A DNA stretch of 37,652 bases from a virus. Its lineage: Duplodnaviria > Caudoviricetes. Each line of letters starts with the position of its first letter. The stretch's first letter is position 1. This document shows, one piece after another, positions 1 to 37,652 of this stretch. The notes under the pieces are model-generated. The model was not told the origin of the DNA and made no database searches. It saw nothing but the letters and a program-made list of their open reading frames with translations. The stretch lies in the IMG/VR virus record IMGVR_UViG_3300032250_000339, positions 1 to 37,652 of that record, one strand, 5' to 3'. Made by a program: the position numbers and the translations under genes.

Positions 1-123
1 AGGTGGCCCTTTACGAAATTATATGCCGCAACGTTCTCGGTTTCAACATGGACAGCGCTGAGCTTTACGGCATGCCCATCAGAGTAGGCAGGACCGGCAA
101 AACAACAGAAAGCGAACGCGGCG
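1..123. repeat. 123-bp terminal direct repeat, copy 1 (most likely assembly circularisation overlap)
   Basis: Bases 1-123 (aggtggccct...gaacgcggcg) are identical to 37530-37652 and fall inside the portal ORF. Confidence 0.95.
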
Positions 124-692
124 AATTTGAGGCGGCATTATCAAAAATGGGCAACGCAGGATACATCCTCCTCGATATGATGGACGAGCTCGAACTGATG
201 GAATCAAAGCAAACCGGGCAAGGCTTCAAAATATACGAGAGCCTCGAGACCAGGTGCGAGAAAAAAATAAGCAAGCTGATCCTAGGACACGCCGACGCCT
301 TAGATAGCACCCCAGGCAAACTAGGAGCAGGCGCAGGCGAGGACAACCCAGTATCGGAAGCGCTCAAAAACATACAAACCATAGACACGCGGTTCTTGGA
401 GCACAACGTGAACACCGAACTACTGCCCAGGCTGCGCGAAATGGGGATGGCAATCCCGGACGACTTGCACTTCGAAATCAAAAACGACCAGGAGCGCGAA
501 GAGATGCGCCGCCGCGAGGACGCAAGCAACAAAGCAACAGCCGAGATAGCGCAGACAATGAAGAGCGCAGGATTGCAGATGGATCCGGCATACTTTGAAG
601 AGCGCACCGGCATACCAACAACAGCAGCGCCGGCACCGGAACCAACGCTGACACCCGGAATACAAAACAAGCTAAAAGCCCTTTATAAATGA
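3..692 (+). CDS. Portal protein (Mu gp29/DUF935-like), C-terminal part; gene starts at 36890 across the junction (443 aa total)
   Basis: In frame with the 36890 ORF through the terminal overlap; ELYGMPIRVG and KISKLILG motifs typical of DUF935 portals; lies between gp36-like and MuF genes. Confidence 0.85.
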   Translation: MALYEIICRNVLGFNMDSAELYGMPIRVGRTGKTTESERGEFEAALSKMGNAGYILLDMMDELELMESKQTGQGFKIYESLETRCEKKISKLILGHADALDSTPGKLGAGAGEDNPVSEALKNIQTIDTRFLEHNVNTELLPRLREMGMAIPDDLHFEIKNDQEREEMRRREDASNKATAEIAQTMKSAGLQMDPAYFEERTGIPTTAAPAPEPTLTPGIQNKLKALYK

Positions 693-2119
693 AATTCGAG
701 ATGAGCGAAGCTGACATAGACCGCCTACTACGGGCGGTTTTTGATGGCGACATCGACTCCAGCAGCAAACTGCCGGAATGGTACTACGACCGCCTCAGCA
801 GCTACCTCGAACACGGGCTATTCAAAGGCTTTGGAGACAACATCGACGACTTAGAGATAGGAACCACACGCAGCGCCCTCCTGCAGGATTTACGCGAGAA
901 CGTTTATATGTTCAGCGGCGCCAAAACATACCAGCAGGTACGCGACTACGAAAGCACGCTACGCGACCTCAGCAGCAAAATGGCGGACGCAGCAACCTAC
1001 CGCGACTTTAAGAACAGCGTGATGGCCACCTACGACAATTATAACACCAATTGGCTCGCTTCTGAATACAACACCGCCGTAGGGCAAGCGCAACAGGCCT
1101 CGCAATGGGATGAGATACAAAACACAAAGGCAACGTTTCCATACCTGAAATACAGCGCCGTGATGGATCCGAACACCTCCGAGATTTGCGCCCCCTTGGA
1201 CGGGATGACGCTACCGGTCGACGACAAAATGTGGGATAAATACACGCCGCTCAACCACTTCAACTGCCGCTGCATTTTGGTGCAGATAGACAAATACGAC
1301 GACGTCAAATTAACGACCGACGCAGAGAAAAAAAAGCTAGCGCAGCAGGTAGGCGACCAAATGCAGGACGTATTCAAAATGAACCCAGGCAAGGACGGCT
1401 ACATTTTTAAACCGGACCACCCATACTTTGAAGTCGCACCAAAGGACCGGAAATTCGCTCGCGAGAATTTCGGACTGCCGCTGCCAAAAGACAAAGAATA
1501 CGAAAACGTTGAAATATCATATCAAAATGACCACGATCCATCAGTGTCTCCGCCTAACGCAAAAGAATTGATGCGAATAGCAGGAGTGCCACACGACATA
1601 AAAGGCAAGGCGGATATAGAATATTACAAAAGCAACGCGGAGGTACGGTTTAAAGGCGAAGGCGTAATAATGACGAGAGTAATCAGGTACGAAGAAAAAA
1701 CAATAGATAACGAATATTTCCGTATTGCTCAAGACAGCGCATACAAAGGCAAAGGTGCTCAGATTTTTAAATCACAAGTGGACCATGCCACAAGGGCTGG
1801 ATACAAAGAAATAAAAACAGCGGCAGCAGGATCCGCAAAAGAAAGTAAAACCTTCAACGGGTATTATACCTGGGCAAGACTTGGATACGTGCCAACAAAA
1901 GATAAGCAATACGGAAAAAGCATATCAGAGGCAATAGGAAACTTTAATGATGAGCACGGAACCAACGCTAAAATTTTTGAGGAGTTAATGGGTACCAAAA
2001 CAGGCCAAGAATTTTGGAAAAATAAAGGCTTCCCTTTTAATGGTAAATTTGACTTACAAAAAAACAGCTATTCACAAACAACACTACAAAACTACATCGA
2101 TGGCAAAGGAAAAAAGTAA
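689..2119 (+). CDS. Phage Mu F-like minor head protein with C-terminal GNAT-like extension
   Basis: MuF signature YLKYSAVMDPNTSEIC...PLNHFNCRC; directly follows the portal; ~200-aa extension with YKGKG and NGYYTWARLGY motifs. Confidence 0.85.
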   Translation: MKFEMSEADIDRLLRAVFDGDIDSSSKLPEWYYDRLSSYLEHGLFKGFGDNIDDLEIGTTRSALLQDLRENVYMFSGAKTYQQVRDYESTLRDLSSKMADAATYRDFKNSVMATYDNYNTNWLASEYNTAVGQAQQASQWDEIQNTKATFPYLKYSAVMDPNTSEICAPLDGMTLPVDDKMWDKYTPLNHFNCRCILVQIDKYDDVKLTTDAEKKKLAQQVGDQMQDVFKMNPGKDGYIFKPDHPYFEVAPKDRKFARENFGLPLPKDKEYENVEISYQNDHDPSVSPPNAKELMRIAGVPHDIKGKADIEYYKSNAEVRFKGEGVIMTRVIRYEEKTIDNEYFRIAQDSAYKGKGAQIFKSQVDHATRAGYKEIKTAAAGSAKESKTFNGYYTWARLGYVPTKDKQYGKSISEAIGNFNDEHGTNAKIFEELMGTKTGQEFWKNKGFPFNGKFDLQKNSYSQTTLQNYIDGKGKK

Positions 2120-2261
2120 AGCACAAAAAGAGCTCGACGAGTACAGAGAAACAAAAATCGCGTACCTTAGTACAGCGGACAAAGACATGGACTTCTCAAA
2201 AGTAAACGATCCCGACAAAAAACCAACGGAACCAACAACGCAAAAAAGCAAACAGGCATGA
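2100..2261 (+). CDS. Small charged protein (53 aa), candidate immunity partner of the MuF extension
   Basis: ATG at 2100 overlaps the MuF 3' end by 20 nt; stop overlaps the next start (ATGA); function inferred from position only. Confidence 0.5.
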   Translation: MAKEKSKAQKELDEYRETKIAYLSTADKDMDFSKVNDPDKKPTEPTTQKSKQA

Positions 2262-2620
2262 AAATACAGGACTTCATAATCACGGCAAACGAAGTATGGG
2301 CCAACGTACGCCAAATGCACCACTTGACCTACAGCAACCCGGAGCATTTAGAGCTTGGCGATTTTTACGACAAATGGGCCGAGCTGACCGACACCTTCAC
2401 AGAAACCTACTACGGCAAATACGGACGCGCCCAGGCAGCAGGATTAATACAGCTGCAAGGACCACCAACGGACCTGCAGGCATACATGAAAGGGCTAAGA
2501 GACACCGTATGGGAAGCGCACAACACACTGACAGCACCCGAGGACATCGACCTGCGCAACATCCTAGCAGATATGACACAATTAATAAACCACACAGCAT
2601 ACCGATTAACACAAAAATAA
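2258..2620 (+). CDS. Ferritin/Dps-like four-helix protein (DUF5856-like)
   Basis: H21/H22...H30-x14-D45-x3-E49 resembles Dps ferroxidase ligand spacing; DFYD...ETYYGKYGR motif. Confidence 0.65.
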   Translation: MKIQDFIITANEVWANVRQMHHLTYSNPEHLELGDFYDKWAELTDTFTETYYGKYGRAQAAGLIQLQGPPTDLQAYMKGLRDTVWEAHNTLTAPEDIDLRNILADMTQLINHTAYRLTQK

Positions 2621-35685: not shown

Positions 35686-36567
35686 ATGGCATATCTTATA
35701 CCCAAGGATTACCAGGTAAACATCCAAGATACCAACCTGCAGCAGATTATAGCCAACGACGAAAGCATACGCCAACGCGCACAATTAGCAGGCGAAGCGG
35801 AGGCGCAAAGCTACCTAAAGCAGAAATACGACATTAGCCGCGAATTCCAGGACATAGAGCCGTTTAATTTCAACAAAACATACCTCGGCTTGCAACGGTT
35901 CTACCTTGACTCGAACAACACATACAACCCAGCAGCAACGTACAACACAAACGACTTGGTGCTTTATACCGGGCACGTATACGCGGCGCGAGTAGACGGC
36001 ATAACGGGAGTCTTCACACCGCACGATTGGCTAGATTTAGGACCGCAATACAGCATTTATAGCGTTACAATACCTTATCCCGAATTCCGCTACGACGGCG
36101 TATACAGGCAAGGCGACCAGGTATGGTGGAAAAACAAAACGTACACCTGCCAAAAGCCAACGCCGATCATGGACCACGACACAGCGCTGCAATACGGCTA
36201 CTACCAAAACCTACCGCTGCCAAACGTTGCACCGGACGATCCGACTGCAGGCTTGCAAAATTGGGGTACAGGAACGCTATACCAGGTGACGCAGGAACTA
36301 CCAACCAACGAAACCTACTACGCAGAAACGGACACCCGAGACGCTCAAATGGTTTTATATTGCTGCGACATTGTGCTGTACCACCTGCACACGCGCATAT
36401 CGCCACGCAACATACCCGAGCTACGCGTTAAGCGATACGATGACGCCATCGCATGGCTGCAAATGTGCGCAAAGGGAGACATTACACCGAACCTCCCCAG
36501 GCTGCAACCGCTGCAGGGGAACCGCATCCGCTGGGGATCCGCAATCAGACAAGGCAACAGCTACTAA
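35686..36567 (+). CDS. Head-tail adaptor (Mu gp36/DUF1320-like) with inserted CBM-like modules
   Basis: EAQSYLKQKYDI N-half and DIVLYHLH..ISPRNIPELRVKRYDDAIAWL C-half separated by a ~160-aa aromatic-rich insert. Confidence 0.8.
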   Translation: MAYLIPKDYQVNIQDTNLQQIIANDESIRQRAQLAGEAEAQSYLKQKYDISREFQDIEPFNFNKTYLGLQRFYLDSNNTYNPAATYNTNDLVLYTGHVYAARVDGITGVFTPHDWLDLGPQYSIYSVTIPYPEFRYDGVYRQGDQVWWKNKTYTCQKPTPIMDHDTALQYGYYQNLPLPNVAPDDPTAGLQNWGTGTLYQVTQELPTNETYYAETDTRDAQMVLYCCDIVLYHLHTRISPRNIPELRVKRYDDAIAWLQMCAKGDITPNLPRLQPLQGNRIRWGSAIRQGNSY

Positions 36568-36582
36568 ACCACACACACACAT

Positions 36583-36915
36583 ATGAAAAAAAAACAGTTA
36601 AATCAGATTAAAAGAACGGCGGAAGGGCTGCCACCGATGCATCAAATCGTAAACCAATACGCAAGGCTCAAAGGCGAAGAGCTGAAAAAAAACGGCGTCA
36701 TGCAGCTTAAGGACGGAGGCGTGGTCGACGACGGCAAAATATACATATCGGTGCGCGAGGACTTACACACAATAAACCACAGACGCCGAATAAAAAAACA
36801 ATTCCAGCGCTACGGCATGGCGGGCGTTATCAGTTACCGCCGCGCAGTACTTGAATACGCAGAACAAAATAAAAATAAAACAGCAAACTATGGCCAGCCT
36901 GATAAACAAAGTTAA
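36583..36915 (+). CDS. Hypothetical basic protein
   Basis: 110-aa ORF between adaptor and portal genes. Confidence 0.6.
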   Translation: MKKKQLNQIKRTAEGLPPMHQIVNQYARLKGEELKKNGVMQLKDGGVVDDGKIYISVREDLHTINHRRRIKKQFQRYGMAGVISYRRAVLEYAEQNKNKTANYGQPDKQS

Positions 36916-37652
36916 AAGCTATTTATTCCCGACACCGGACAACCCGCTAACAGGCGAACGCCCGAGTGATTGGCGCACCATGAAAGATCCGGAGCGCAAC
37001 CTTCGCAGCTACATCACACCGGTGCAGCTCCAGCGCATACGCACCGACGTGAACCTTTGGCGCGAAGCCATCACGGAAGCGGAGCAGGCGTGGTACCCAC
37101 ACCGCGTACGCATGCAGAGAATCTACATGGACACGGTCCTGAACGGCCACGTAGCAGCCTGCATGTCGCGCAGGAAGGAAATGACGCTGCTGAAGGAATA
37201 CAAGCTATGCGACGCCAACGGCGAAGAGAACGAAGAGTGGACAAAAGCCTTAAAAAAGGATTGGTTCTACAAATACTGCAACTACGTCCTCGACGCAGAA
37301 TTTTATGGCTACAGCCTCATAGCCCTAGGCGACATTATCGACGACGAATTCCCGAAGCTGACCACAATACGCCGATTTAACGTAAGCCCGGACCGTTTGA
37401 ACGTTACCAGCTACGTATACAGCCTTTCAGGCGCGCAATTCCTCGACGATCCGTACCGTTTGTGGCACGTTTGGGTGCCAACACCAACGGAGATTGGGGT
37501 ATCATTGGTAGGCTACGGCTTGCTTTACAAGGTGGCCCTTTACGAAATTATATGCCGCAACGTTCTCGGTTTCAACATGGACAGCGCTGAGCTTTACGGC
37601 ATGCCCATCAGAGTAGGCAGGACCGGCAAAACAACAGAAAGCGAACGCGGCG
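36890..37652 (+). CDS. Portal protein (DUF935-like), N-terminal part (MASLINKVKSYLFP...), continues at base 124
   Basis: Open frame from ATG 36890 to the window end; NGHVAACMSRRK, DAEFYGYSLI and GLLYKVA motifs; missed by the ORF track because its stop lies across the junction. Confidence 0.88.
   Translation, partial: MASLINKVKSYLFPTPDNPLTGERPSDWRTMKDPERNLRSYITPVQLQRIRTDVNLWREAITEAEQAWYPHRVRMQRIYMDTVLNGHVAACMSRRKEMTLLKEYKLCDANGEENEEWTKALKKDWFYKYCNYVLDAEFYGYSLIALGDIIDDEFPKLTTIRRFNVSPDRLNVTSYVYSLSGAQFLDDPYRLWHVWVPTPTEIGVSLVGYGLLYKVALYEIICRNVLGFNMDSAELYGMPIRVGRTGKTTESERG
37530..37652. repeat. 123-bp terminal direct repeat, copy 2
   Basis: Identical to bases 1-123. Confidence 0.95.

Follow-up and report, generated by a model that had tools for sequence, protein, structure and literature searches.

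In phage SPP1 the MuF-type protein gp7 is present in the capsid at one to two copies together with the portal, and the co-injection of MuF-borne toxins with the DNA has been put forward as a hypothesis; the MuF toxins known so far sit on temperate phages (PMC5576092). A second described setting is that of the polyvalent proteins, in which two families of Gcn5-related N-acetyltransferase (GNAT) domains were predicted and proposed to modify host proteins (PMC5512222). We analysed a stretch of 37,652 bases (the window), a complete Caudoviricetes record with terminal repeats (IMG/VR record IMGVR_UViG_3300032250_000339), in which the open reading frame (ORF) 689–2119 joins a MuF head part to a C-terminal domain with a predicted GNAT-type fold, and an overlapping small ORF, 2100–2261, encodes a candidate partner peptide. 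What appears to be new here, judging from sequence comparison and structure prediction, is this partner peptide, which occurs as a separate ORF or as an in-cis fusion, and a MuF tail of predicted acetyltransferase type; in the literature open without subscription we found neither a MuF–GNAT fusion nor this domain family.

An exchangeable tail on a MuF head protein

The head part of ORF 689–2119, which starts directly after the portal gene, is recognised by PF04233 over residues 108–197 (Pfam, E 7.4e-15) and by PHROG 220, 'minor head protein and DNA pilot', over residues 65–259. Because the PHROG MuF-type families reach residue 259 and 61 of 63 short MuF relatives stop 2–10 residues beyond the place of residue 267, the head must end close to position 1490, where an earlier note made from the letters of the window had put the boundary. 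Its motif positions (HPYF 1418–1429, NFGLPLPK 1466–1489, YKGKGAQIF 1742–1768, GYKEIKTAA 1799–1825 and NGYYTWARLGY 1856–1888) and its four hand counts of GC (34/60, 32/60, 22/60 and 18/60) were likewise exact. Across the boundary GC falls from 0.519 (689–1489) to 0.390 (1490–2119), and GC at third codon positions (GC3) from 0.68 to 0.36. None of 204 windows of 209 codons taken from 27 other genes has a GC3 as low as that of the tail (0.364; lowest window 0.407), and all 27 reference genes have a higher codon-adaptation index than the tail (0.647; lowest gene 0.666). The architectural features by which MuF toxins are recognised are present, namely an N-terminal MuF domain in the head module, a variable extension of at least 100 residues (here 209) and a downstream ORF of fewer than 150 residues.

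We surveyed the tail position in the best 120 of 381 relatives of residues 1–267, with the search covering proteins of 261–833 residues. No tail was present in 63 of them, and the 57 long proteins fell into ten tail clusters: GNAT (5 proteins), ADP-ribosyltransferase (ART; 5), zeta (2, by Pfam), five clusters with an HExxH motif, judged by eye on cluster representatives (42 proteins, P0159–P0269, mostly without Pfam names), intein artefacts (2) and one unassigned. In a quick tree of 122 heads made with IQ-TREE, from which the two intein rows were omitted and to which four GNAT rows were added, the GNAT label needs 6 changes, of which at least 4 are forced, and the near-identical heads of P0005 and P0210 carry a GNAT and an HExxH tail, respectively. 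Since the position is empty in some related MuF heads and filled by ART, zeta or HExxH tails in others, it is, by sequence comparison, a polymorphic-toxin slot, in agreement with the earlier proposal that the tail is swappable.

The closest heads, P0003 (95% identical) and P0004 (85%), carry the same domain family at only 54–55% identity. Among contigs from four read runs compared for allele exchange (X2, X3, X5 and X14), those of X3, X5 and X14 match the window at about 95% over 400–1449, are replaced over 1449–1741 and 1837–2065, and keep 1741–1837 at 83%. With the closest heads sharing the family at such distance, a replaced tract in three contigs and MuF fusions that recur across the family (below), these alignments indicate that the tail allele was exchanged recently while the fusion of MuF with the domain is older and recurrent. 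The suggestion that the domain had been recently acquired thus holds for the allele and not for the fusion.

Predicted fold, active site and family of the tail domain

Searched alone, the tail has no match in Pfam, PHROGs, NCBIfam or PDB sequences, and profiles of the family meet solved GNATs only at E 0.3–2.4. An AlphaFold2 model built from an alignment of 116 sequences (predicted local distance difference test, pLDDT, 95.2; predicted template modelling score, pTM, 0.90) contains a strand at model residues 71–79, a KGKG loop, a helix at 89–102, a strand at 107–112 and a helix at 124–130, in GNAT order. Every Foldseek match shown from the PDB was an acetyltransferase, but the matches were weak (best E 4.5e-4; template modelling score, TM, 0.23–0.38). 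A wider fold search returned acyltransferases or GNAT-fold proteins in 49 of 50 rows, some of which we take to be GNAT-fold proteins although their titles do not say so, and an antizyme in the remaining row. The best Z score was 7.5 (root-mean-square deviation, rmsd, 3.8 with 100 aligned residues), with AcrVA5 at 6.7, TacT2 at 6.4 and AtaT at 6.2; AcrVA5 gave the tightest superposition, with rmsd 2.7 over 90 of 95 residues at 12% identity. A second model of the tail gave the same picture, with a best Z of 7.9 to NatD and AcrVA5 dropping to 5.8.

Because a Z score below 8, the caution line of the search, may by itself reflect a common arrangement, our GNAT assignment rests on the fold together with sequence evidence from relatives: PF00583 matches 8 of 116 family members (Pfam, best E 3.1e-6), and two proteins with repeated domains, P0019 and P0047, exceed the PF00583 cut-off. 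The modelled mixed sheet, β4–loop–α3–β5 core and motif B helix fit a GNAT by their consistency rather than by one strong match. The tail is thus predicted to have a GNAT-type fold without a close solved relative, and the earlier expectation of such a fold is borne out by structure prediction and Foldseek. ESM Atlas returned unnamed clusters and one with PF00583 in 20% of its members, which is a lead only. Fold matches from BFVD in the Bacillus phages JL and CP-51 were rejected as family members, as nothing was found in JL and the CP-51 match was a helicase-like ORF.

The residues expected to bind acetyl-CoA are well conserved in the 116-row alignment. In the predicted pyrophosphate loop (A351–G356), G354 is kept in 99 and G356 in 109 rows, and the G-x-G/A part of the GNAT consensus Q/R-x-x-G-x-G/A (PMC4964394) is kept in 95, while the first position is K in 38 rows, R in 20 and Q in 11 (69 of 116). 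The resemblance of YKGKGAQIF to this consensus, which the earlier note had pointed out, extends to the G-x-G part; at the Q/R position the window copy has Ala (A-Y-K-G-K-G). In the motif B region G391, W395 and G399 are invariant, and N390 (114 rows), Y392 (113), Y393 (114), T394 (115) and R397 (109) nearly so. Trp395 stands at the usual place of the GNAT general-acid Tyr, where the solved GNAT 4h89 also has Trp (by a weak alignment, E 2.4), and two near-invariant Tyr residues precede it by two and three positions. The family sequences that share the near-invariant loop glycines and the N-G-Y-Y-T-W-x-R patch are 22–56% identical, and the C-terminal subdomain holds invariant G, W, G, F and Y residues. 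The net charge of the domain is +4 in the window copy, with a family median of +2.

A search with residues 270–476 found 14 relatives, and a profile of these matches 3,458 cluster representatives at E ≤ 1e-3, 2,394 at 1e-10 and 310 at 1e-30; the weakest matches may be other GNATs. The domain occurs as a solo protein, as a fusion with MuF or portal, and in several copies within polyvalent proteins: 38 of 155 proteins examined had 300 or fewer residues, and 62 had two to four domain matches. Among the 39 IMG/VR proteins scanned (39 of 45 loci), 18 contained MuF, 6 a portal domain and 23 either or both. Other members share a chain with ART, ART-PolyVal (P0035, P0036, P0037 and P0146), 2H, NUDIX or InPase domains. 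Loci from GTDB place the family in Bacteroidota, Planctomycetota, Pseudomonadota and further groups. Four single queries found no family member among INPHARED phages, where a fifth, P0146, matched through its ART part, and a MuF-head scan of IMG/VR returned nothing.

Several further arrangements were seen among family members. Sixteen of the 38 solo members start with MGGR or MGGN, a tag that may be a capsid-targeting or modification signal. Some solo members lie in DUF4417–ParB–QueC or PAPS-reductase clusters (L004:2924-6358; L128:90-2912), near terminase in L004. Domain genes with an overlapping small ORF also occur amid housekeeping genes such as flagellar and hydrogenase genes (L088:5731-6577; L096:5749-6746; L065:5956-6812; L097:5698-6584), in an arrangement resembling a toxin–antitoxin pair in reversed order. 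A solo group of 220–310 residues in L055, L056, L063, L078, L085 and other Planctomycetota loci, often without a coupled small ORF and in non-phage context, is possibly domesticated. Tandem genes, each with the domain, are found in L020:3187-7801, L102:2-1857 and L155:2236-3884.

The partner peptide and the surrounding genome

Small ORFs that follow the domain elsewhere encode peptides related to that of ORF 2100–2261 (54% identical in L001, 42% in L003 and 44% in L131), which has no Pfam match and ends in a D-F-x-K motif that is also seen in ORFs following solo domains. The N-terminal part of the L003 protein has no detectable kinship with the window MuF head, yet its peptide is related; therefore the peptide travels with the domain and not with the head. 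To count such coupling we took 211 domain ORFs and kept 167, dropping duplicates, open ends, short flanks and two broken loci. A coupled ORF of 30–100 residues follows 86 of 125 C-terminal copies of the domain, compared with 9 of 42 copies at internal positions and 161 of 701 genes used as controls.

Column tallies over 83 pairs gave a common acidic motif, L-T/S-x-E-D-E-x-x-L-D-x-x-W. Since an initial pattern of the motif came from these same loci and included one false row (the ParB gene of L004), only held-out and in-cis tests were counted. A motif model trained on earlier loci recognised 10 of the 31 ORFs held out and none of 306 controls, and the motif stands in frame 4–54 residues after 51 of 176 internal copies and after 0 of 600 control segments; in repeated proteins it follows each copy, four times in P0019 and three times in P0042. 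The window peptide scores −3.9 bits against the acidic motif and belongs to a different family, of which the portal protein P0110 carries an in-frame copy behind its domain (24.6 bits, compared with at most 6.9 in controls). From these sequence data ORF 2100–2261 is a real partner of the domain, and the earlier pairing of the two is supported by the coupling counts, the in-cis fusions and P0110.

A structural model of the natural fusion L140 has a disordered linker (pLDDT 58) and a motif helix at pLDDT 96–97, with a pTM of 0.89; we read the helix as docked on the domain in the model, where an isolated helix can also score well. In X3, X5 and X14, positions 2065–2247 are 96–97% identical to the window while the domain allele is replaced; the substitutions in ORF 2100–2261 (3 silent, 5 changing) are too few to show selection.

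The partner slot is taken by three or more unrelated peptide families. The third, 'ELPIEEF', is found at L005:6467-6595 and in L137, L142, L144, L149, L150, L152 and L172, and was not found fused in frame (best 6.8 bits, control 5.6); a fourth occurs in L020, L028, L171 and L187. A conserved frameshift joining domain and peptide was considered and rejected, as start offsets occur in all frames. Behind proteins whose GNAT is followed by another domain lies a Cys-rich small ORF (C-x-x-C ... C-x-A-F ... H; L002:7717-7917, L046:7317-7478, L124:5458-5664, L133:1430-1636), which is fused to the C terminus of P0014; it is possibly the partner of that other domain.

Features of the MuF locus in the window (all coordinates are positions of the window)
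Feature	Coordinates	Strand	Basis or remark
Mu-type portal gene, 3' part	3..692	+	PF06074 at both window ends; 5' part at 36851-37651
MuF (SPP1 gp7 / Mu gp30 type) minor head part, residues 1-267 of the 476-residue ORF	689..1489	+	PF04233, PHROG 220
Tract with divergent allele in three related contigs	1450..2064	+	Contigs of runs X3, X5, X14
C-terminal domain, residues 268-476 (209 residues), predicted GNAT-type fold, large unnamed family	1490..2119	+	AlphaFold2, fold searches, relatives
Predicted acetyl-CoA pyrophosphate loop A351-G356 (AYKGKG)	1739..1756	+	Flanked in the model by strand 71-79 and helix 89-102
Family signature NGYYTWARLGY, motif B region	1856..1888	+	Conservation in 116 rows; register from weak 4h89 alignment
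Partner peptide ORF (53 residues), candidate inhibitor (immunity)	2100..2261	+	Overlaps the MuF stop by 20 nt and the next start (ATGA)
DUF5856 gene, next in operon	2258..2620	+	PF19174, E 1.2e-13

The window genome encodes a contractile tail, a lysozyme and a PolA/primase module (Pfam, PHROGs). Across the complete genome there was no match to PF00589 or PF00239, the tyrosine integrase and resolvase families, and none of the 69 window ORFs scanned in PHROGs was a repressor. Those relatives of the MuF part that carry a name are from Bacteroidetes and Chitinophaga, so the host is likely a member of the Bacteroidota. The DUF5856 gene also matches PHROG 858, with a Dps-like label, and precedes an un-annotated ORF of 91 residues (2620–2895); the stretch 2258–2895 diverges from related contigs more than ORF 2100–2261 does, with short compensating indels. 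The Mu gp36-like adaptor gene at 35686–36567 contains weak CBM_5_12 repeats (Pfam), as does that of L001.

Possible function, and comparison with known systems

We give a probability of about 0.5 to the reading that the tail is a virion-packaged acetyltransferase acting on an essential host amino group, and that the peptide binds and inhibits it in the producing cell. Its starting points are the MuF head, whose tail is exchangeable, the small ORF that accompanies the domain as a coupled gene, and the predicted GNAT fold, in which the G-x-G loop is intact and the NGYYTW-R-G patch invariant. By established MuF biology one to two copies would be bound at the portal, and the enzyme would likely be packaged in the head and likely injected with the DNA; the presence of MuF and/or portal in 23 of the 39 IMG/VR proteins counts as a virion link. 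The peptide, which is not fused to MuF here, would be left behind or lost, so that the enzyme would be free in the new cell, and in relatives with an in-frame peptide the enzyme would be self-silenced until the linker is cut. The two-gene pairs among housekeeping genes (L088, L096), a setting also usual for toxin–antitoxin pairs, likewise count for a toxic enzyme. The target is the least supported step: within this reading, translation, through aminoacyl-tRNA or a protein N terminus, has a little less than an even chance, and another essential protein such as RNA polymerase might be acetylated instead.

Several observations weigh against this reading. The fold scores are middling (best Z 7.5 and 7.9, below 8; Foldseek TM 0.28–0.38), the usual general-acid Tyr is Trp and the loop Q/R is Ala in the window copy, and the mild basicity of the domain is not what a strong tRNA-binding surface would show. 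Integrase and resolvase matches are absent here, whereas known MuF toxins sit on temperate phages. The modelled fusion L140 carries a peptide of another family than that of the window, which is itself off the common acidic motif, and the window peptide is kept at 96–97% through allele exchange, unlike an allele-specific immunity protein. By the coupling rule used here, no small coupled ORF follows 39 of 125 C-terminal copies, and no motif follows 125 of 176 internal copies; a fused inhibitor would travel with the enzyme, and a release step was not found. Moreover, related sequences are not independent, so the counts overstate significance.

Of the alternatives, the one that survives best, though we think it improbable, is that the injected domain is an anti-defence or takeover enzyme of low toxicity whose substrate would be a lysine in a defence protein or RNA polymerase, in the manner of AcrVA5 and Rac, with the peptide only timing or restraining it. 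The tight superposition of AcrVA5, the lack of any sign of lysogeny among the integrase and resolvase families searched, and the members that share polypeptides with 2H, NUDIX, InPase and ART-PolyVal domains fit such an enzyme, and Rac and polyvalent GNATs have been proposed to act in this way (PMC7824862). However, many GNATs score level with AcrVA5, whose Z drops to 5.8 in the second model, and a dedicated, widely kept partner together with pairs among housekeeping genes better fits a toxic enzyme.

The same partner could be an activator or a missing structural piece, such that a split enzyme is complete only with the bound helix and is packaged as a complex. A motif after every copy in repeated proteins, as in P0019 and P0042, would suit an obligatory part, as would a peptide kept through allele exchange; but the domain is predicted to fold at pLDDT 95 without the peptide, the slot is filled by at least three unrelated peptide families, and many copies lack any, which makes this quite unlikely. 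Somewhat less likely again is an enzyme without a host target that acylates the phage's own DNA or proteins, by Mom-like base modification or in head maturation. In its favour are the location of MuF with the DNA, the solo members in DUF4417–ParB–QueC or PAPS-reductase clusters near terminase genes (L004, L128) and the precedent of Mom, a GNAT acylating adenine (PMC13219725); the absence of Mom from the listed fold-search rows excludes nothing. Against self-modification, the same slot holds ART, zeta or peptidase-like tails or nothing, one or two copies per virion are poorly suited to modifying a genome, and an ART gene lies right after the pair in L126. A catalytically dead GNAT-like binding module, which the Trp at the usual Tyr place and the middling fold scores would allow, is very unlikely given that the loop glycines and the N-G-Y-Y-T-W-x-R patch at the predicted cofactor cleft are near-invariant over sequences 22–56% identical and that a solved GNAT (4h89) has Trp there too.

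If the reading of a packaged and inhibited acetyltransferase is right, acetylation would join the activities that phages deliver on MuF, and a family of more than 2,000 sequence clusters without a model in Pfam, PHROGs or NCBIfam would gain a name. The 209-residue domain and the 53-residue peptide form a minimal testable pair, and the alternation between separate and fused partners offers a handle on a question that concerns MuF and polyvalent effectors alike, namely how a virion enzyme stays off in the producer and becomes active once injected. The 'temperate only' rule would need broadening as well if a MuF effector sits on a phage that lacks an integrase. More tentatively, and with odds well short of even, the family as a whole could be an undescribed group of acetyltransferase toxins with thousands of members, held under a short peptide helix that is encoded by an overlapping gene or tethered, carried on MuF, portal or polyvalent proteins, armed on delivery when the free peptide is left behind or the tether cut, and endowed with a Trp/Tyr-Tyr active site and a target new for GNAT toxins.

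Among known systems, AcrVA5 and Rac share with the window domain a phage-encoded GNAT fold and act on host proteins, as the window domain may; AcrVA5 superposes on the domain core. To our knowledge both are small stand-alone proteins that are not described as virion-fused, and we know of no partner peptide for either. The aminoacyl-tRNA acetylating toxins AtaT, TacT, KacT and ItaT (PMC7180214, PMC7595197) likewise have the GNAT fold and form a two-gene pair with a small partner, and both kinds of pair occur outside phages. In the window family, by contrast, the partner is downstream or fused, has 35–100 residues and no Pfam ribbon–helix–helix (RHH) match; the upstream gene is the portal; Trp stands at the place of the catalytic Tyr144 of AtaT (by a weak alignment); and the domain is fused to virion proteins. 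The AtaT/TacT-type link drawn in the earlier note was not supported, as fold kinship is no closer than to other GNATs (Z 6.2–7.1, tied) and the partner is not an upstream RHH antitoxin; the window system is not a GNAT–RHH toxin–antitoxin pair.

With the polyvalent GNATs of Iyer 2017 (PMC5512222) the family shares GNAT domains in large, virion-packaged multi-domain proteins beside ART-PolyVal, 2H and InPase. The marker of their family 2, phage Alice gp113, which itself matches Pfam GNAT weakly, gave an hhalign probability of 0.1%, and the Alice genome held no match at E ≤ 1. Their family 1 (marker BAR32501.1), described from gammaproteobacterial prophages with an ART neighbour, may be related to the window family, which would then be less new. 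Four ART-PolyVal phages contained no member of the window family, and none of the four carried a polyvalent GNAT for comparison. The window family differs from the Iyer GNATs as described in its breadth of taxa, its C-terminal subdomain with invariant residues and its partner peptide, which the accessible text of that paper does not mention.

The closest described systems remain the MuF polymorphic toxins with downstream immunity ORFs (Jamet 2017, PMC5576092; Bxa and Apk2, PMC11699363; Zhang 2012, PMC3482391). No acetyltransferase is named in the text or six searchable supplements of Jamet 2017, and neither GNAT nor acetyltransferase in the first 300,000 of 357,715 characters of Zhang 2012. 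The window locus has the same MuF head, the same exchangeable tail of more than 100 residues, the same small coupled downstream ORF, the same place beside the portal gene and a likely Bacteroidota host as well, and it differs in that the tail class is a predicted acetyltransferase, no integrase was found in the genome, and the partner family is also fused in cis.
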